DNA from: a virus
Lineage: Duplodnaviria; Heunggongvirae; Uroviricota; Caudoviricetes
Direction: 5' to 3' (one strand)
IMG/VR virus record: IMGVR_UViG_2721755711_000002
DNA length: 64,000 nt
Part shown: piece after piece, positions 19,925 to 47,432 of the stretch
Layout: each line of letters begins with the position of its first letter
How positions within the stretch are numbered: position 1 is the stretch's first letter
The notes under the pieces: generated by a model
Databases searched by the model: none
Told to the model about the DNA's origin: nothing
The model's input: only the letters and a program-made list of their open reading frames with translations
Made by a program: the position numbers and the translations under genes

Positions 19925-20547
19925 TTTTGAATCACCGTTGTTGCATAGGAATAAATAAAAGGGAGTTTTACATATTTCTGGTCAATGGCATCTTTCAGAA
20001 AATAGCCTATACCATCACCATATTCTGGTATCTGAATAGAAAAAACACTGTCCGATACAGTCACACTCACATCAAAAGTGTGCTGCAACGGCGGGTCTAT
20101 CCCGTTTTTTCCGTGAATGAACCGCGCCACACGTCGCTTTAACCAGTCAATGCAGAAGTGCGAGCCGTCAGCCTTATAAAAATTCCACGTCAATATTCGC
20201 TTGAAATAATCATCAGGAACATACGATGCCTGCCCCGGAACGTAATTCCGCATTGCCGCATACGGGATCGTATTGTATTCAATGGTATCGTATGCACCGC
20301 GTGCAATAGCCTCCTCGGAAACCTGTAGTAAAGGCCTTTCAACGCCATAAATCCCGAGTGCAATCCAGTCCAGCAATTGCCCGGTTATTGATTCTGATGT
20401 CCAGCATGGCAATGCCAGATTGTTGAGTGAATCGAGGTATTCCTGAGCAATTTCATTGTATGCATCAAAGAACGCAACAACATTCGGATCATCTCTGTAC
20501 TGCACAAATGGATAAGCAGGGAGAATTTTCTCAGTCAGATATTGCAT
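19921..20547 (-). CDS. tail/baseplate protein (gpI / Mu gp48 position)
   Basis: about 208 aa from MQYLTEKILPAYP; between J-like and fibre genes. Confidence 0.55.
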   Translation of the reverse strand: MQYLTEKILPAYPFVQYRDDPNVVAFFDAYNEIAQEYLDSLNNLALPCWTSESITGQLLDWIALGIYGVERPLLQVSEEAIARGAYDTIEYNTIPYAAMRNYVPGQASYVPDDYFKRILTWNFYKADGSHFCIDWLKRRVARFIHGKNGIDPPLQHTFDVSVTVSDSVFSIQIPEYGDGIGYFLKDAIDQKYVKLPFIYSYATTVIQK

Positions 20548-23778: not shown

Positions 23779-23877
23779 TCACCACCATCGGATCTGACCA
23801 ACAAAATAACCAGACGCAAGAATCAGAAAGACCAACCAAATAAGCAAAAACTTCCAGGTGGATAATTTTTCAGCCAT
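23779..23877 (-). CDS. small hydrophobic peptide (32 aa, ends RWW)
   Basis: MAEKLSTWKFLLIWLVFLILASGYFVGQIRWW with GGAGA RBS, 7 nt upstream of next ATG; not in ORF track (too short). Confidence 0.3.
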   Translation of the reverse strand: MAEKLSTWKFLLIWLVFLILASGYFVGQIRWW

Positions 23878-23943
23878 AACTCGAATCTCCCGAATCAGTT
23901 TGCTAAAATCAAACACGACTTCTCCTTGCCTTATTCAAGGTCA

Positions 23944-23979
23944 GAAACAAAAAGCCCCGACTGTTTGCCCAGTCGGGGC
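23944..23979 (-). terminator. intrinsic terminator after baseplate spike gene
   Basis: minus strand GCCCCGACTG-loop-CAGTCGGGGC followed by TTTTTGTTT. Confidence 0.6.
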
Positions 23980-24018
23980 TTTCGCTTTATGGATAGAATT
24001 TAAAGTGAAATTAACCGG

Positions 24019-41054: not shown

Positions 41055-41306
41055 TTAGTCCTGATTTTTATCCACCCTGAGTAGTTCACGCAGGGCAAAG
41101 GCATCCCCTTTTCTGGCAAGCTTAAACAATGCCGCCCGTAGTTCGGCTTCACCTTTCGCTCTGCCCTTACGGATGGATGCGTAAAAATCTGTCATTGCTT
41201 CCCGATTTTCTTTCAGTCGGTTCAGATCAACATCCAGAACGTCAGCGATTTGTTGTGCAGTCATCCGGCACGCTGCCAGAGACTCGACTTTCGAATACGG
41301 AATCAT
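41055..41306 (-). CDS. small HTH-like protein
   Basis: 83 aa helical protein upstream of terminase genes. Confidence 0.4.
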   Translation of the reverse strand: MIPYSKVESLAACRMTAQQIADVLDVDLNRLKENREAMTDFYASIRKGRAKGEAELRAALFKLARKGDAFALRELLRVDKNQD

Positions 41307-42174
41307 TTGTCACCCCCATTGATATGCAGGGTGTCTTCTTCCTGTATTTTTCGTGAAGGATTTTTACTGCAGCGTTGTTCCAGGTGACCTGATGGTGAAT
41401 GCGTTTATGGCTGGCCCCCATCAGTGAGATTTTTACGCACGAGGGCGCATACATGACGGAGTAAAAACTTTTAACGTAGGTTCCGGAATCCAGATACAGC
41501 TCGGTCATTCCGCCGCTGTTTTTCTGCGTCTGTTTCTGCCCTAACTGGACAGCACCGATCGTCATAAACAATTCACCACAGCGACCGAGATTCGTGTACG
41601 TATTCACATCCTCGTTAATGCGCCCCATGAATGAGAACGGTCGATCAACCGAACAGATAAAGCTGTTCATTGCCTTGCGTTTCACCCACGAAGCATGGCC
41701 GCCATTGTCACCAAGAAAATCCCCGCCCTGCGACATAGCGATGGAAAGCGCGGGTATTGATTCGTAATACGCCAGCATTTCAGAAAGGATCGCATCCAGT
41801 TTCCTTATCGGGAAATAGGCCTGGTCATAGTTGCGATCCACCCGAAACTGGAACTCGTGATAATCATCATCGAGCTGAATGAAGTATTTACACCCGACCA
41901 TTTTTGCCAGGTCGAAACAGGCATTACGGGCGTAAAAAATTGAGCGGCGGTCACCGAAATTATCGGCTTCGTCAAAACGACTGGCGATATCGGCTTTGGA
42001 AAACACCAGCACCTGTTCACCAAATTCAGCTATGTACTGATGCCGTGTCTTATCTTCATCATCAACAACGATAAAAATTTTCCCGGTATAGCCAGCACGA
42101 CGCAACGTCCGGTAAGTCAGAACTTTGTCCGGTCGCCCGTGAGTCAGAATAAAGGCGCAAAAATCATCACGCAT
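41242..42174 (-). CDS. GT-A fold (family 2-like) glycosyltransferase, soluble
   Basis: FILTHGRPD..IFIVVDDEDKT..ARNACFDLAK..YFIQLDDDY fits GT2 N-terminal pattern and DxD motif; no TM segments. Confidence 0.5.
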   Translation of the reverse strand: MRDDFCAFILTHGRPDKVLTYRTLRRAGYTGKIFIVVDDEDKTRHQYIAEFGEQVLVFSKADIASRFDEADNFGDRRSIFYARNACFDLAKMVGCKYFIQLDDDYHEFQFRVDRNYDQAYFPIRKLDAILSEMLAYYESIPALSIAMSQGGDFLGDNGGHASWVKRKAMNSFICSVDRPFSFMGRINEDVNTYTNLGRCGELFMTIGAVQLGQKQTQKNSGGMTELYLDSGTYVKSFYSVMYAPSCVKISLMGASHKRIHHQVTWNNAAVKILHEKYRKKTPCISMGVTNDSVFESRVSGSVPDDCTTNR

Positions 42175-42955
42175 ATTCCTCCTCCCCGCCATGCATGATC
42201 TCCACCATGCGCTGCGTCATCCGGACAAAACCATTTTCGATGGCTTGCTGATAATCAATGATCACCAGTGCCGACTCCTCAAAAAGGCCCTGAATTTCAG
42301 CGGGGGCGTGAGCGTAATAGTCTGCAATTCTGCTGAAATTAAACACCGTGTGGCGTTCTGCCGCGCACAGGAGGAATTTTTCGATATCAGGCTCAAGGGA
42401 CGCCGTACGTATCCGGCTGACCAGCTCCTGAGTTTTCGTATCGTCGTACAGTTCACTGATATCCGGTTCATCCCCTGACGGCTCATAAACAGGCGTATCA
42501 ATTTTCGTCGTGTACGGCTCATCCTCATTCGCTGTACCTGGCAAAACATCCGTTAATAGTTCGTCAATTTCTGTCGGGCAGAATCCTGTCAGGGAGATAT
42601 CAAAATCAGCATTGATTAGGTCCGACAGCTCCATCCGTAACAGATCTTCATCCCAGCCAGCACTCATCGGCAGGCGATTATCAGCCAGGCGGTACGCCTT
42701 TTTCTGATCATCCGTCAGACCAGACAGAACAATGACCGGAACCGAATCCATTTTGAGCGCCTCAGCCGCCATAACACGCCCGTGCCCCGCAATAATTTCA
42801 CCCTTTTCATCAATCAGCACCGGATTTGTCCAGCCGAATTGCTTAATGCTTTCAACCAGCTGTGTCACCTGTTCAGGAGAGTGTGTCCTTGCATTGTGCA
42901 CATACGGAGACAACTCTTGTAACAGTCGATAGACAATATTCAATTTTTCGCTCAT
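42167..42955 (-). CDS. ParB-like nuclease domain protein
   Basis: N-terminus LSPYVHNARTHSPEQ..GWTNPVLID..IIAGHGRVMAA resembles ParB/Srx domain; acidic C-terminal half. Confidence 0.55.
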   Translation of the reverse strand: MSEKLNIVYRLLQELSPYVHNARTHSPEQVTQLVESIKQFGWTNPVLIDEKGEIIAGHGRVMAAEALKMDSVPVIVLSGLTDDQKKAYRLADNRLPMSAGWDEDLLRMELSDLINADFDISLTGFCPTEIDELLTDVLPGTANEDEPYTTKIDTPVYEPSGDEPDISELYDDTKTQELVSRIRTASLEPDIEKFLLCAAERHTVFNFSRIADYYAHAPAEIQGLFEESALVIIDYQQAIENGFVRMTQRMVEIMHGGEEEYA

Positions 42956-43353
42956 ACAACCTCGCTTTATGAATAAAAAACTAACAGCAGCCAGTGGAGA
43001 GCATTTATCATTAACATTTACAGATAAGATGACGTACATCATTGAAACGCCATTCAGCCATATACCGGCAGCATTCGTAGTTGCACTCCGTAACTCTGCG
43101 ACTAAGGTTAAAAACATGGCCCTCTTTCGCCACCGGCAAATCTTCCATGGATTTCCCCTGCCGGTTTTTTATTTTCGTCGATGCATAACATTGCATTTAC
43201 ATCAATACCGTCTATTGTCATAAGTATGTTGTACCGATGCTCGGGTGATATTGGCGGTCTTCGCCGGCCGGTTCTGTGTAGCTGTTCCCTGTGACCGGTT
43301 TTTTATTTCTCACATTATCGCAGCCCCTCGCTGAAGGGCTGCTGTAATGTCTG

Positions 43354-43824: not shown

Positions 43825-44007
43825 TCAGTTCTGCAGACACTGCCGAACACCGTCGACAATTTCACAGACCTGAGAAGCTGTATCAAAAAGCTGGCGCGCT
43901 TTATCCAGGCTGACACATCCCACCAGGAAAAAAGGCACCAGTATCGCTACCAGCGCCCATTTCACCGCCGTTCGAGGCATTCTGTGTGTCCAGTGTTTTC
44001 GGCTCAT
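43825..44007 (-). CDS. small lipoprotein (60 aa)
   Basis: signal peptide with LVGC lipobox; three Cys in mature part. Confidence 0.5.
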   Translation of the reverse strand: MSRKHWTHRMPRTAVKWALVAILVPFFLVGCVSLDKARQLFDTASQVCEIVDGVRQCLQN

Positions 44008-44008
44008 G

Positions 44009-44122
44009 TCACCACCAACGCACAGCCCAAATCAGAACAGCGACCGCCACAAGGCGAATTGCAAAGGCCGCAGCCCTTGTCAAATCAAGGCTCGCGGGAG
44101 TTTCCACTTCAATACCTTTCAT
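44009..44122 (-). CDS. small membrane peptide (37 aa, ends RWW)
   Basis: MKGIEVETPASLDLTRAAAFAIRLVAVAVLIWAVRWW; stop 1 nt before lipoprotein ATG; GAGG RBS; below ORF-track size cutoff. Confidence 0.35.
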   Translation of the reverse strand: MKGIEVETPASLDLTRAAAFAIRLVAVAVLIWAVRWW

Positions 44123-44203
44123 AATGGACAACCTCAAAAAGAATCTTTTATACTTTCCCACGAGGATTTTCTCCGTACTCACTACTCACAATTTCCTCTT
44201 TGA

Positions 44204-44244
44204 CGTGAAAACTAAAAACCCCGGACTGTTCCAGCAGCCGGGGT
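44204..44244. terminator. bidirectional intrinsic terminator after lysis operon
   Basis: CCCCGG-13 nt-CCGGGG flanked by A tract and TTTTGTTTTTT. Confidence 0.6.
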
Positions 44245-44252
44245 TTTGTTTT

Positions 44253-44534
44253 TTATTTACTGCCTTGGGTGCGGCATCTGGCTATTTCATTCCTGGCTTT
44301 ACTGTCACCGCGACAGATACAACGCACCGTGTCTCCGGTCAGCGTGGTAATGTAAGCCTCATCCTCTTTTTCTACCGGAATACATGGAATATCCCCGCCC
44401 AGGCAATACTCAATTTTTGCTGCAAGATGAGTGTCACGCGGATAGAACTCCAGACGATACATATTCCCCAGAACATGCACTTCTTCAACCTGACGACCAT
44501 CTTTAGTTACCGTGATTTTTTTCAGTGCGTACAT
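44253..44534 (-). CDS. Cys-rich small protein downstream of endolysin
   Basis: 94 aa from MYALKK after GGAGG RBS; CLGGDIPC..CICRG..RC. Confidence 0.45.
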   Translation of the reverse strand: MYALKKITVTKDGRQVEEVHVLGNMYRLEFYPRDTHLAAKIEYCLGGDIPCIPVEKEDEAYITTLTGDTVRCICRGDSKARNEIARCRTQGSK

Positions 44535-44604
44535 ACGTACCTCCGTTCTTTCGTTTTTTGAGCAATAAAAAAGCCGCTCATGGCGGCCCTGTATGTTTTG
44601 CAAG

Positions 44605-44988
44605 CTATCGCTTCAATTGAAAATGTGGGCCGTCTTTAAGCGTCCGCCAGTCACCGCCCCATTCGATGGCAGTTCCAAGCTCTGCGGCAGCTTGCTTAAA
44701 TGCCTGTGCGATTTTCTCGTACAGAGGCCAGTCCCATGACACCTGGCTGCCAACATAAGCCACAACATCCACAGCATCACCGGTCAGGTGGCGGCTGTTC
44801 ATGGTCTGGCTCTTACCTTCTGCAACCAGCTGTTTCTGGCGATACTTACTGCGCAGACCTTCCGTAATACCGAAATCAACCTCCGTCAGCTCCAGCGCAC
44901 GGCGAACAACAGCAACCAGCTGTGGTTTGACGCCCTCCAGATTTTTTTCACTGCGACGACTGAATCTGAATTTACCCGACATGCTCAC
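44605..44988 (-). CDS. endolysin, peptidase M15 family (L-alanyl-D-glutamate peptidase type)
   Basis: HLTGDAVDV..WGGDW..DGPHFQL motifs typical of M15 endolysins. Confidence 0.75.
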   Translation of the reverse strand: MSMSGKFRFSRRSEKNLEGVKPQLVAVVRRALELTEVDFGITEGLRSKYRQKQLVAEGKSQTMNSRHLTGDAVDVVAYVGSQVSWDWPLYEKIAQAFKQAAAELGTAIEWGGDWRTLKDGPHFQLKR

Positions 44989-45260
44989 CTCCGGAATGAA
45001 AGGATTTTTGAAACGTTCCCGCGTGCACGTATCACCAGCACGCAGAACAGCAGATTAAGCCCCACCGCCAGCCAGTTCGCCGCTAACGGGCGACCGCACA
45101 GATAGCTGAGTGGTGCAAAGGCATAAAGCAGCATCAGTAGCCAGGCCAGCCATGACATCAGCGCTTTATGTCTGGAATCACGGCGACGATAAAAAAAGAG
45201 CGTCAGCACGATAACCGTGCTTAACACCACATTCAGTAATCCGGGAAGGTTACTTAACAT
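44985..45260 (-). CDS. holin-like membrane protein
   Basis: 91 aa with three hydrophobic segments, between holin and endolysin. Confidence 0.55.
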   Translation of the reverse strand: MLSNLPGLLNVVLSTVIVLTLFFYRRRDSRHKALMSWLAWLLMLLYAFAPLSYLCGRPLAANWLAVGLNLLFCVLVIRARGNVSKILSFRR

Positions 45261-45639
45261 TACCGCCTCCTCCCCGCAGACGGGAGAACAGCCCGAATAC
45301 CAGCGATGCGATATCCTGCTGGTGGATGAATGAGAGAATCTTCACCGACACCACCGATACCAGTACCGCGCAAAGCGCGTCGAGAGATGTGCTGTGGAGA
45401 TTCAGTTTTTCAACCAGGTAAGACGCCATCACATCCGCCCCCAGCACGCCAACAATGAACGACACCAGAAAATGCGCTGCCACACGCCAGACAGAAATCT
45501 TCTGTGGTATCGTGGCCACAAACAGCGCCCCTGCGAATGCACCAAACACAATCCCGAAATCCGTTCCGGTAAACAGCCCGAATACCGTCGCCCCACCGAG
45601 CGCCGCAGCCGTGCCGGAACCGGATAAGGGTTCAGACAT
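45250..45639 (-). CDS. holin-like membrane protein
   Basis: about 130 aa from MSEPLSG after AGGAGA RBS; Gly/Ala-rich TM segments. Confidence 0.55.
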   Translation of the reverse strand: MSEPLSGSGTAAALGGATVFGLFTGTDFGIVFGAFAGALFVATIPQKISVWRVAAHFLVSFIVGVLGADVMASYLVEKLNLHSTSLDALCAVLVSVVSVKILSFIHQQDIASLVFGLFSRLRGGGGNVK

Positions 45640-45732: not shown

Positions 45733-45939
45733 TTATTGCTTTAGTGTCATTTGCGCTTCAATAAAGCGACGGCGGTTCTCCGCAATAACAAACGCCATTG
45801 CCAGCCCTTTGACGGCTGCATCATGACCATACCGGGTCTGAGCAGCAGCAAACCTTCGTTCTATCGCTGCTACAGAATCAATGGCAGAATCTGCTATGCA
45901 ATTTTCAAATTCAGTTATCACTTCTGTCGAAGAGGTCAT
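45733..45939 (-). CDS. small hypothetical protein (68 aa), uncertain
   Basis: helical-looking ORF in late-operon orientation; its ATG is back to back with the ATG at 45940. Confidence 0.3.
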   Translation of the reverse strand: MTSSTEVITEFENCIADSAIDSVAAIERRFAAAQTRYGHDAAVKGLAMAFVIAENRRRFIEAQMTLKQ

Positions 45940-46620
45940 ATGTACTCCCTGAAAATTAGATGCCCGTACTGCCTTCATCAGGTTCATATTTCTCTGAATG
46001 AGGTCACCCAGTACCACAGCAGGCGCCCGGCTACAGAAAACAAGCTTTACGTGCAACAGCCGCGCACCTCTGAAATAACATCAGCAAAAGCATACTCAAC
46101 AGACTTTTGCACAGAATGTAACAACCCATTAATGATCGCATTCGAATGTTCAGTCAGTGAACTGGTGGACATGAAAAAAGCCATCAACAACAAAGCCTGG
46201 GTGCTGAATGCTCCACTTGAGGGAAGCATCAAAATCTATCCTGAACTCAGGCTGCCCGATGACTCCCCCCACTATCCCGAAAAAATTCGCGCAGTCTTCA
46301 CCGAGTTGCAAGAGGATGTTCGGTCCGGCAGAACCGCCCCGCGTATCATTGTTGGCTGCCGTAGCGTCCTCGAGGTTGCCCTCCGTGCCCTGGGGTACGA
46401 AAAAGGCAATCTGCTGTCACGCATTGAACTGGCACGGCAGGACGGCATACTGACGGAATCAATGAGAAACTGGGCTCACCGAATCCGTATGGAAGGCAAT
46501 GAGGCTGTGCACGAGCTCGAGGCCAGTGGTGAACAGGCAAAAGAGTTTGTGGCGTTTCTCCGCCTGTTCCTTGAAGTGGCATTTGTGCTACCGGAACGCA
46601 TTAAGGAACAGCAGCAATAA
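45940..46620 (+). CDS. Cys-pair / HEPN-like (DUF4145-type) protein, candidate defence effector
   Basis: C-terminal ..MRNWAHRIRMEGNEAVHELE.. fits R-x-x-x-G-N-x-A-V-H signature recalled for DUF4145; CPYC and CTEC pairs; start could be 46132 or 46171. Confidence 0.45.
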   Translation: MYSLKIRCPYCLHQVHISLNEVTQYHSRRPATENKLYVQQPRTSEITSAKAYSTDFCTECNNPLMIAFECSVSELVDMKKAINNKAWVLNAPLEGSIKIYPELRLPDDSPHYPEKIRAVFTELQEDVRSGRTAPRIIVGCRSVLEVALRALGYEKGNLLSRIELARQDGILTESMRNWAHRIRMEGNEAVHELEASGEQAKEFVAFLRLFLEVAFVLPERIKEQQQ

Positions 46621-46654: not shown

Positions 46655-46813
46655 TCAGCTGTTGTTTTTGTTCCGGAATAAAGGCCGGAGCACGACCAGC
46701 GCCATCGCCACCAGTACACCATCAGCCAGTACCGACATCAGCCGTCCGGTGAAATCCACCGCCACTACCAGAAACAGCAGGACGGCAGCCAGCGCAAGGC
46801 GTGCACTTTTCAC
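46655..46813 (-). CDS. small membrane peptide (52 aa, GTG start overlapping TerB stop)
   Basis: VKSARLALAAVLLFLVVAVDFTGRLMSVLADGVLVAMALVVLRPLF; hydrophobic; read by hand. Confidence 0.3.
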   Translation of the reverse strand: MKSARLALAAVLLFLVVAVDFTGRLMSVLADGVLVAMALVVLRPLFRNKNNS

Positions 46814-47235
46814 AGGTACTGCTCCAGCGGTAACTGCAGCGCCTGAGCAATTTTCTTGAGCTGTGCTTCTTCATCCGGACCAATGCCATCCTGGTCTGCG
46901 ATATCCAGACACAGGCACAGCACATTAACGGCATCATCAGTACCGGCGACATCAGCCAGTTGACGGAGGGCTTCAGCATTGGCAGAACGCGGCGATGCTT
47001 CATAACGGGCGCGGATATTCGCGCTCATCTGGGCAATCTCACCGGAGAACGGCGCAAAGGCAGGAAGTGCTGCAATGGTTTTCTCCAGTACCGCAATTTC
47101 TTTCGCGTCACAGGTGTCGTCAGCGTATGCAATGGAATACGCGCCCCAGACGGTCGCCTCCACCGCGTCGCGGTTCTCCATTTTCTTCACTTCAGTAATA
47201 GCCTTACGGGTTTTCTTTTTGAAAATACCAAACAT
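46810..47235 (-). CDS. TerB-domain protein
   Basis: MFGIFKKK start after AGGA RBS; C-terminal VLCLCLDIADQDGIGPDEEAQLKKIAQAL typical of TerB-like fold. Confidence 0.55.
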   Translation of the reverse strand: MFGIFKKKTRKAITEVKKMENRDAVEATVWGAYSIAYADDTCDAKEIAVLEKTIAALPAFAPFSGEIAQMSANIRARYEASPRSANAEALRQLADVAGTDDAVNVLCLCLDIADQDGIGPDEEAQLKKIAQALQLPLEQYL

Positions 47236-47432
47236 CGTGACTTTTCCTTTTAGTGGGTGAGCCTCGCCCCGGGATGAGCAGCCCACAGAGAAAGTCACAC
47301 TGACCATCCCGTAAGCTCCCCCCTGAAAGGCTCTGTGGTTTTTTGATGTGCGCCGGGCGTGGCGCAGATATGAAAAAGGCCACGCACGTGCGCAGCCTGA
47401 TAATTTTCTGAATCAGCGGAGTGTCAGCTGGT

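Follow-up and report, generated by a model that had tools for sequence, protein, structure and literature searches.

Two small genes at the end of the lysis cassette

The stretch analysed here, a 64,000-nucleotide (nt) window of IMG/VR record IMGVR_UViG_2721755711_000002, is DNA of a phiP27-like prophage of E. coli, and two small genes on its minus strand are the subject of this report. One encodes a single-pass membrane protein ending in RWW (phrog_4493; 44009-44161, with a 37-amino-acid (aa) form at 44009-44122). The other, the last gene of the lysis cassette and the occupant of its spanin slot, encodes a 60-aa lipoprotein precursor (phrog_7528; 43825-44007). In RefSeq both are labelled as hypothetical proteins, of 37 and 51 aa, respectively. 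Along the minus strand they are preceded, in this order, by a Q-type late antiterminator (50226-50921; Pfam PF06323 Phage_antiter_Q, E = 4.9e-89), which lies 5′ of the lysis genes, a first holin-like protein of the Phage_holin_8 type (45250-45639; PF16931, E = 2.5e-22; phrog_198 holin), a second, three-transmembrane holin-like protein of the Phage_holin_3_7 type (44985-45260; PF05449, E = 5e-20; phrog_217 holin) and an M15 peptidase endolysin (44605-44988; PF13539, E = 2.9e-12; phrog_465 endolysin, E = 3.5e-75). The open reading frame (ORF) of the first holin-like protein extends to 45705 from a GTG; its likely start is the ATG (MSEPLSG...), and the RefSeq homologue has 129 aa.

Between the endolysin and RWW peptide genes stands an inserted 93-aa Cys-rich ORF (44253-44534, minus strand; phrog_33497, with no assigned function), which is carried by a minority of the related cassettes and looks like a moron. 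It has a terminator on each side: a predicted intrinsic-terminator-like hairpin directly 3′ of the endolysin gene (44570-44590, minus strand) and a strong bidirectional intrinsic terminator 5′ of the peptide and lipoprotein genes (44210-44255, stem 44219-44243, with U-runs on both strands). The earlier note on this DNA, made from the sequence alone, placed the peptide and the lipoprotein after the terminator of the lysis operon; both terminators do lie upstream of the two genes, but late transcription is not thereby uncoupled. Q antiterminators of lambdoid phages read through intrinsic terminators. The Q gene is upstream on the same strand, a terminator at this place is lacking in most relatives, and the two terminators here flank the inserted ORF; on these grounds the peptide and lipoprotein genes probably still belong to the late operon.

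The lipoprotein gene and its product

The ORF at 43825-44007 encodes, as first described, a lipoprotein of 60 aa with an LVGC lipobox and three cysteines. Its sequence is MSRKHWTHRMPRTAVKWALVAILVPFFLVGC-VSLDKARQLFDTASQVCEIVDGVRQCLQN, the portion after MSRKHWTHRMPRTAVKWALVAILVPFFLVGC beginning with VSLDK. A basic n-region of 17 aa and the lipobox are followed by a mature part of 30 aa, and the cysteines are C31, C48 and C57. The description of the protein as not proline-rich also holds, as the mature part contains no proline and resembles Rz1 neither in sequence nor in composition; its net charge is −1, with three basic and four acidic residues.

Eighty IMG/VR loci were retrieved with the lipoprotein as query, and in all of them it closes the lysis cassette. 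Its ratio of nonsynonymous to synonymous polymorphism (pN/pS) was 0.155 over 39 unique sequences, compared with 0.12 for the endolysin and 0.35 for the second holin. For the RWW peptide, the ratio was 0.10 in frame versus 1.17 and 4.56 in the other two frames, and 24 of its 36 variable sites were third codon positions. Both small ORFs are conserved in related prophages and are genuine genes under purifying selection, not chance ORFs. Across related loci, M1, the h-region, G30, C31, C48 and C57 of the lipoprotein are invariant, and its +2 residue is V, A, T, G, S or E, never D, in all homologues. Met10, the start of the 51-aa RefSeq call, is variable (M/I/V/T/A), and the homology among differing cassette architectures stops exactly 5′ of the first ATG; therefore the 60-aa form is the product and the RefSeq call is too short.

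The AlphaFold model (predicted local distance difference test score, pLDDT, 69) has an amphipathic helix at residues 32-44, followed by a beta-hairpin (47-51/54-58) in which C48 and C57 are opposite each other, so that a C48-C57 disulfide may staple the hairpin of the mature protein. The signal is of the Sec/Lsp lipoprotein type and, judging from the lack of Asp at +2, the lipoprotein would be lipid-anchored at C31 in the inner leaflet of the outer membrane.

Neither the lipoprotein nor the RWW peptide, nor the related small peptides, had a match in Pfam (for the lipoprotein, even at E ≤ 1), NCBIfam or PADLOC, and in PHROGs they matched only families without assigned function. A search of PDB sequences with the lipoprotein profile returned chance-level matches only, and tblastn with lambda Rz and Rz1 revealed no relation to it. 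The gene is present in 223 of 5426 complete E. coli genomes (~4%), Stx2e and Stx2k phages included, and in five phage records that carry it the gene is annotated as hypothetical or left unannotated. An E. coli-type lysis cassette with the lipoprotein, at 88-95% identity, is also found in a record named Actinobacillus phage vB_Apl-pPE4 (PP818812.1), a surprising occurrence if the host belongs to the Pasteurellaceae.

When 1.84 billion representatives were searched exhaustively with the profile, only ~25 lipoprotein clusters emerged. The divergent subfamily follows the pattern ...LLVGC-xx-EKARNWFGVAADVC-x9-C..., and its genes always stand directly after the endolysin gene, with a gap of 4-18 nt or an overlap. 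Their surroundings are diverse: holin_8 plus holin_3_7 and an M15 endolysin with myovirus-type genes (L205); a lambda-S-family holin_3_1 and an M15 endolysin with a Q antiterminator upstream and siphovirus-type tail genes (L206/L207); holin_3_1 with a GH108 endolysin (L211/L212); and holin_8 plus holin_3_7 with a GH108 endolysin in a Mu-like setting with GemA, Mor and Portal_Mu (L209/L210). No i-spanin was seen in any of these four contexts.

The spanin slot and the missing i-spanin

The earlier note regarded the two small proteins as not spanin-like. For the lipoprotein this leaves three points out of account: its place is the spanin slot, an intact copy and Rz/Rz1 exclude each other, and its phiP27 homologue has been catalogued as an o-spanin (PMC6139136). 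Among ~200 loci, none combined an intact lipoprotein gene with Rz/Rz1. Four loci do contain both, and there the lipoprotein gene is a pseudogene, interrupted by three in-frame stops and located ~770 nt 3′ of Rz/Rz1. Two features of an o-spanin are present, namely the lipobox signal with predicted outer-membrane sorting (no Asp at +2) and the location in the lysis cassette; two further ones, a neighbouring i-spanin and a periplasm-spanning length, are absent (30 mature residues, no partner).

No ORF of the window other than the lipoprotein has a convincing lipobox, and no i-spanin-like type-II membrane ORF is found near the lysis cassette there. Likewise, no i-spanin gene embeds, overlaps or adjoins the lipoprotein gene in the window or in the flanks of ~120 loci. 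Either holin-like protein was considered as the i-spanin and rejected, both being multi-pass proteins with short loops and the lipoprotein also occurring with a lambda-S-type holin instead. The cassette endolysin is likewise either an M15 peptidase or a GH108 muramidase. Because no other component of the cassette is constant and no i-spanin occurs in any divergent context, an inner-membrane partner encoded by the phage is unlikely.

In the survey of Kongari et al. 2018 (PMC6139136), phiP27 is listed as having a "separated" two-component spanin, whose o-spanin is the 51-aa call of the lipoprotein homologue, its 30 periplasmic residues having a predicted helix content of 83%, and whose i-spanin is a 64-aa TTG-start ORF at 20348-20542. 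With 62 periplasmic residues in total, this is the shortest of the 528 systems, and both members are singleton families (PMC6139136). The 64-aa ORF (NC_003356 20348-20542, corresponding to 3789-3983 of L002 in gene orientation) matches phiP27 alone among the retrieved loci, and it is not conserved even in the nearest relative, L016. Judged by this distribution, the 64-aa "i-spanin" is probably not a spanin, and since the ORF is confined to phiP27, the published pairing fails for the family. The lipoprotein is best described as an o-spanin-like lysis lipoprotein without an i-spanin, which had been flagged bioinformatically before but was mis-paired. Two annotations are thus corrected here: the 51-aa start of the lipoprotein in RefSeq and the phiP27 "i-spanin" in the spanin catalogue.

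The lack of an i-spanin has parallels in the same survey, where ~13% of the phages of Gram-negative hosts had no recognisable spanin and 31 genomes had an orphan lipoprotein without an i-spanin, a mechanism being left open (PMC6139136). Our literature searches found no mention of the accession numbers and no characterised solo lysis lipoprotein.

The RWW peptide is an optional neighbour

The peptide and the lipoprotein were first proposed to be a pair, and the neighbours of the lipoprotein gene contradict this. In 35 of the 80 loci the upstream neighbour is the stop codon of the M15 endolysin, at a gap of 15-18 nt, with no intervening ORF; these loci have an AGGTG ribosome-binding site and no promoter-like site. 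A window-type RWW peptide precedes the lipoprotein in 23 loci and another small transmembrane peptide (phrog_4906-like) in 16, while other contexts account for 5 loci (among them the three of phiP27 type and one in which another RWW-ending peptide is the neighbour) and a single locus was unclassifiable, the contig end being too near. Relatives of the 37-aa peptide were sought via a 57-aa extended ORF and the degenerate DNA pattern W-A-[VI]-R-W-W-stop. The pattern search showed that this peptide gene and its TGA-N-ATG junction recur directly ahead of the lipoprotein or, in S21-pinholin/signal-arrest-release-endolysin cassettes, directly ahead of a canonical lambda-type Rz with embedded Rz1. The peptide is equally frequent ahead of canonical Rz/Rz1. 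Because it precedes either of the two, the RWW peptide is not a fixed partner; it is an optional gene just 5′ of whichever outer-membrane lysis gene is present.

The 37-aa single-transmembrane ORF ending in RWW (MKGIEVETPASLDLTRAAAFAIRLVAVAVLIWAVRWW; 44009-44122, minus strand) is present as first described, but its product is probably longer. The 13 codons 5′ of its ATG (GKYKRFFLRLSI) are conserved, and adding them raises the phrog_4493 score from 58.8 to 83.8 bits. The start codon of this extension varies (GTG/ATG/TTG), and in the paralogous phrog_1115 family the matching codons begin with an ATG behind an AGGAG site and show conservative replacements as well as an in-frame indel of one codon. 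On account of the conserved upstream codons, the variable start codon and the correspondence with phrog_1115, the peptide probably has 50 aa (44009-44161) and starts at GTG 44161. In the 50-aa form, a basic amphipathic N-terminal segment precedes a single transmembrane segment with a conserved Arg/Lys, and only RWW follows the membrane segment. The 1-nt spacing to the next gene was confirmed: a single C separates the TGA of the peptide from the ATG of the lipoprotein.

We agree with the earlier note that the peptide is not a canonical i-spanin. A role as an N-out analogue of an i-spanin was also considered and is ruled out by the basic N-terminal leader and by the presence of the peptide ahead of complete Rz/Rz1. 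The peptide matched no holin family in Pfam or PHROGs; its location in the lysis cassette would fit a holin or antiholin and its two possible starts (GTG 44161 and ATG 44122) recall holin-antiholin pairs, but it has a relative among tail genes.

This relative, the second RWW-ending peptide that the earlier note had listed at 23779-23877, was found at that place. It is a small membrane ORF (phrog_6632) on the minus strand of the tail/baseplate region, which extends to 23916 if read from an upstream GTG, and it is preceded by a conserved 5′ element (23920-23947) and a 14-bp terminator hairpin (23950-23983). In other phages phrog_6632 lies between the endolysin and Rz. The 5′ element, consisting of the terminator hairpin, CTGACCTTGAnTAAGGCAAGGGAGAA and the start codon, is common to phrog_6632, phrog_1115 and phrog_4493 in the Rz context; copies stand at 23920-23983 (minus strand) of the window, amid tail/baseplate genes, at 9700-9765 of L178 and at ~3615-3661 of L039. 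Where the peptide precedes Rz, its GTG start shares bases with a mini-ORF of 8 codons (MGREVLSL). The three families give the impression of small-membrane-protein minigenes that can replace one another.

Arrays of two to four differing single-transmembrane ORFs of 28-60 aa also occur between the endolysin and the spanin slot (L183 1828-2391; L039 3662-3996; L134 2002-2254), with mosaic recombination within a common AFAIR/AFAIK transmembrane segment.

The recurrence of RWW was considered as a functional motif, and a simpler account was preferred. At 7 of 8 positions UGG-UGG-UGA agrees with the extended Shine-Dalgarno sequence GGAGGUGA, and in both window copies these codons lie 1-7 nt ahead of the next start. 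Much of the recurrence likely reflects a ribosome-binding-site constraint imposed by the next gene, plus the common ancestry and mosaic kinship of the peptides.

Putative RNA elements

A conserved 11-bp hairpin with a U-tract (43928-43958, minus strand; ~−15.7 kcal/mol, U5-6) lies in the region coding for the lipoprotein signal peptide. Synonymous variation is reduced there, third-position diversity being 0.020 in the hairpin versus 0.131 in the remaining lipoprotein gene (Fisher p = 0.027), and all 11 pairs are kept in six of seven stem or loop variant types. The Mu-like homologue lacks this hairpin, which may serve as a terminator within the gene and prevent its expression as long as Q antitermination is not active.

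On the opposite strand, a promoter-like site (TGGACA-18-TATACT, 10/12; 44125-44154, plus strand) lies antisense in the leader of the peptide and points toward the bidirectional terminator. From this site an antisense RNA of ~95 nt (44161-44255, plus strand) could be made. The predicted RNA has a fold z-score of −5.0, and the same arrangement exists in the Rz context (L178). Against Rfam, it matched P22 sar at 20.5 bits (gathering score 43) and ohsC at 19.7 bits, both below threshold. No antisense promoter was found at the second RWW locus (23779).

Other genes near the lysis cassette

The region at 41242-43117 (minus strand), located between the terminase and the lysis cassette, encodes a ParB_N-domain protein and, after it, a TET-associated glycosyltransferase (PF20691); the two genes are probably a DNA hypermodification module. 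On the opposite strand, just 5′ of the holins, lies a gene for a DUF4145 protein (45751-46620, plus strand). Between a tRNA-Gly gene (48328-48400) and the holins, a conserved 52-aa two-transmembrane ORF and a TerB-like protein are found at 46655-46813 and 46810-47307 (both minus strand). The DUF4145, TerB-like and 52-aa ORFs are possible accessory or defence cargo in the late region.

Possible role of the lipoprotein in lysis

The reading that we favour, as slightly more likely than not, is that the lipoprotein carries out the outer-membrane step of lysis, standing alone in the spanin slot without a phage i-spanin. After export and lipidation at C31 it would reside in the inner leaflet of the outer membrane, where its mini-domain of 30 residues, an amphipathic helix plus a stapled hairpin, would fill the slot of Rz/Rz1 without an inner-membrane partner from the phage. 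After the endolysin has removed the wall, it would weaken or breach the outer membrane, directly or via a host envelope protein. Since 30 residues cannot bridge the periplasm, it would have to act at the outer membrane itself or on such a host protein. The RWW protein would be a separate inner-membrane accessory, translationally coupled to the downstream outer-membrane gene; our best guess is a modulator of lysis timing. Of the options offered in the earlier note, "unrecognised lysis accessory" comes closest.

The lipoprotein shares with lambda Rz1 and other o-spanins the outer-membrane lipoprotein signal, the slot 3′ of the endolysin, periplasmic cysteines and the same upstream peptide gene. 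It differs from them in that no conserved i-spanin gene adjoins, embeds or overlaps it, and it has no sequence similarity to lambda Rz1; its mature part of 30 aa is Pro-free and predicted to be helical with a hairpin, in contrast to the Pro-rich, unstructured Rz1. Like the unimolecular spanin T1 gp11, it is the product of a single spanin-slot gene with an N-terminal lipobox, but its C-terminal 30 residues (VSLDKARQLFDTASQVCEIVDGVRQCLQN) are hydrophilic, with no C-terminal transmembrane segment, and too short for bridging. Colicin lysis proteins, or bacteriocin release proteins, are lipopeptides of ~30 aa in the mature form that permeabilise the outer membrane without a partner. These proteins (PF02402) are the nearest functional precedent: they too have a 45-60-aa precursor, an LxGC-type lipobox and a mature part of ~30 aa (within ~27-35 aa), which is a resemblance only, and the conserved, unusual signal peptide of the lipoprotein recalls the stable signal peptide of the bacteriocin release proteins. 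However, the lipoprotein has no Pfam match at E ≤ 1, is encoded in a holin-endolysin cassette rather than a colicin operon and has two extra cysteines. For the RWW peptide, Lcc6 of Shewanella phage LambdaSo (bioRxiv 10.1101/2024.01.23.576932) is likewise a tiny single-pass membrane protein encoded beside holin, endolysin and spanin, but Lcc6 is needed for lysis, whereas many cassettes that are identical in all other respects lack the RWW peptide, and the two proteins have no apparent sequence relation.

Several points weigh against a stand-alone lytic role. Thirty mature residues are too few to span the periplasm, the mechanism is putative, and the AlphaFold model is of moderate confidence only (pLDDT 69). 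A small fold stapled by a disulfide suggests a specific ligand rather than a protein that disrupts membranes. The decayed copies beside Rz/Rz1 represent a single lineage of four near-identical loci, and the flanks examined for an i-spanin were 4 kb, which leaves room for a partner encoded by the host or farther away in the phage genome. Lysis genes can, moreover, have lipoprotein morons such as lambda bor as neighbours. The phiKT gp28 disruptin (bioRxiv 10.1101/515445) is another small single E. coli phage protein, proposed as a spanin replacement for outer-membrane disruption, but it is cationic and amphipathic with no lipobox or anchor, whereas the lipoprotein is predicted to be lipid-anchored and has a net charge of −1.

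One competing explanation is a minimal two-component spanin, in which the lipoprotein is the o-spanin of a tiny phage-encoded inner-membrane partner, either the RWW peptide or the phiP27 64-aa ORF. The listing of phiP27 with its 62 periplasmic residues would fit, as would the small transmembrane ORF that is translationally coupled just 5′ of the lipoprotein in about half of the loci, and a protein with a C-terminal transmembrane domain is in principle allowed as an i-spanin (Kongari et al. 2018). We nevertheless regard this as improbable, for in the 35 loci and in every divergent context the lipoprotein gene comes next after the endolysin gene with no ORF in the gap, and the 64-aa ORF occurs in phiP27 alone. 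The RWW peptide is, moreover, found ahead of complete Rz/Rz1 systems, which have an i-spanin of their own, and given its strongly basic leader it would expose only ~3 residues to the periplasm. There is also no conserved partner, as the holin and endolysin families vary. The variation of these families bears equally on a role as a lysis regulator that times or localises the endolysin or holin from the periplasmic side. The lipoprotein is always co-transcribed with holin and endolysin, and extra small lysis factors such as Lcc6 of LambdaSo exist, but two unrelated endolysin families and two holin sets leave no conserved phage target, and the substitution is specifically with Rz/Rz1; we consider such a regulator as improbable as the two-component spanin.

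A moron unrelated to lysis, serving in superinfection exclusion or receptor masking as T5 Llp and phi80/N15 Cor do, or as a fitness factor like lambda Bor, is unlikely, though somewhat less so. In its small size, probable fold and predicted disulfide, the mature part resembles Llp, and the region after the lysis genes is a known moron hotspot, the window itself having the inserted 93-aa ORF. Llp and Cor are indeed small phage outer-membrane lipoproteins with a disulfide, which is predicted here too, but they are linked to receptor-binding genes and have mature parts about twice as long. The lipoprotein instead tracks the lysis cassette across myovirus, siphovirus-type and Mu-like modules; it has no promoter-like site of its own, lies 4-18 nt from the endolysin, excludes and is excluded by Rz/Rz1, decays beside it and has no PADLOC match. 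The toxin or exclusion module suggested in the earlier note found nothing in its support, PADLOC included, and a toxin/exclusion pair, or a type I toxin peptide under a cis-antisense RNA, is the least credible of these alternatives. The RWW peptide is small and hydrophobic (37 or 50 aa, one transmembrane segment), the antisense promoter-like site in its leader faces the bidirectional terminator ~95 nt off both here and in the Rz context, and the sub-threshold sar and ohsC matches point the same way. Yet the peptide and the lipoprotein assort independently, no sense promoter was found for the peptide, and the Rfam matches are far under the gathering scores and owe most of their signal to the terminator hairpin. 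At the second RWW locus an antisense promoter is missing, and conservation of the promoter hexamers is confounded with that of the coding leader.

Returning to the stand-alone lysis lipoprotein, a more far-reaching version can be put forward tentatively, namely that the lipopeptide is a self-sufficient outer-membrane disruptor of lambdoid and Mu-like enterobacterial phages, a third class of final-step proteins beside spanins and disruptins, which would operate from the inner leaflet of the outer membrane with no bridge to the inner one and would be silenced by the intragenic terminator hairpin unless Q antitermination is active. For the question of how phages without a recognisable spanin, or with an orphan lipoprotein, pass the outer membrane, this family is a clean and genetically tractable E. 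coli example, in which a single gene of 60 codons swaps with Rz/Rz1 at the same position alongside several types of holin and endolysin. If the lipoprotein acts alone, it would represent a new minimal mode of outer-membrane breakage and be a candidate lipopeptide for permeabilising this membrane; dependence on a host partner would instead point to a vulnerability in the host envelope.

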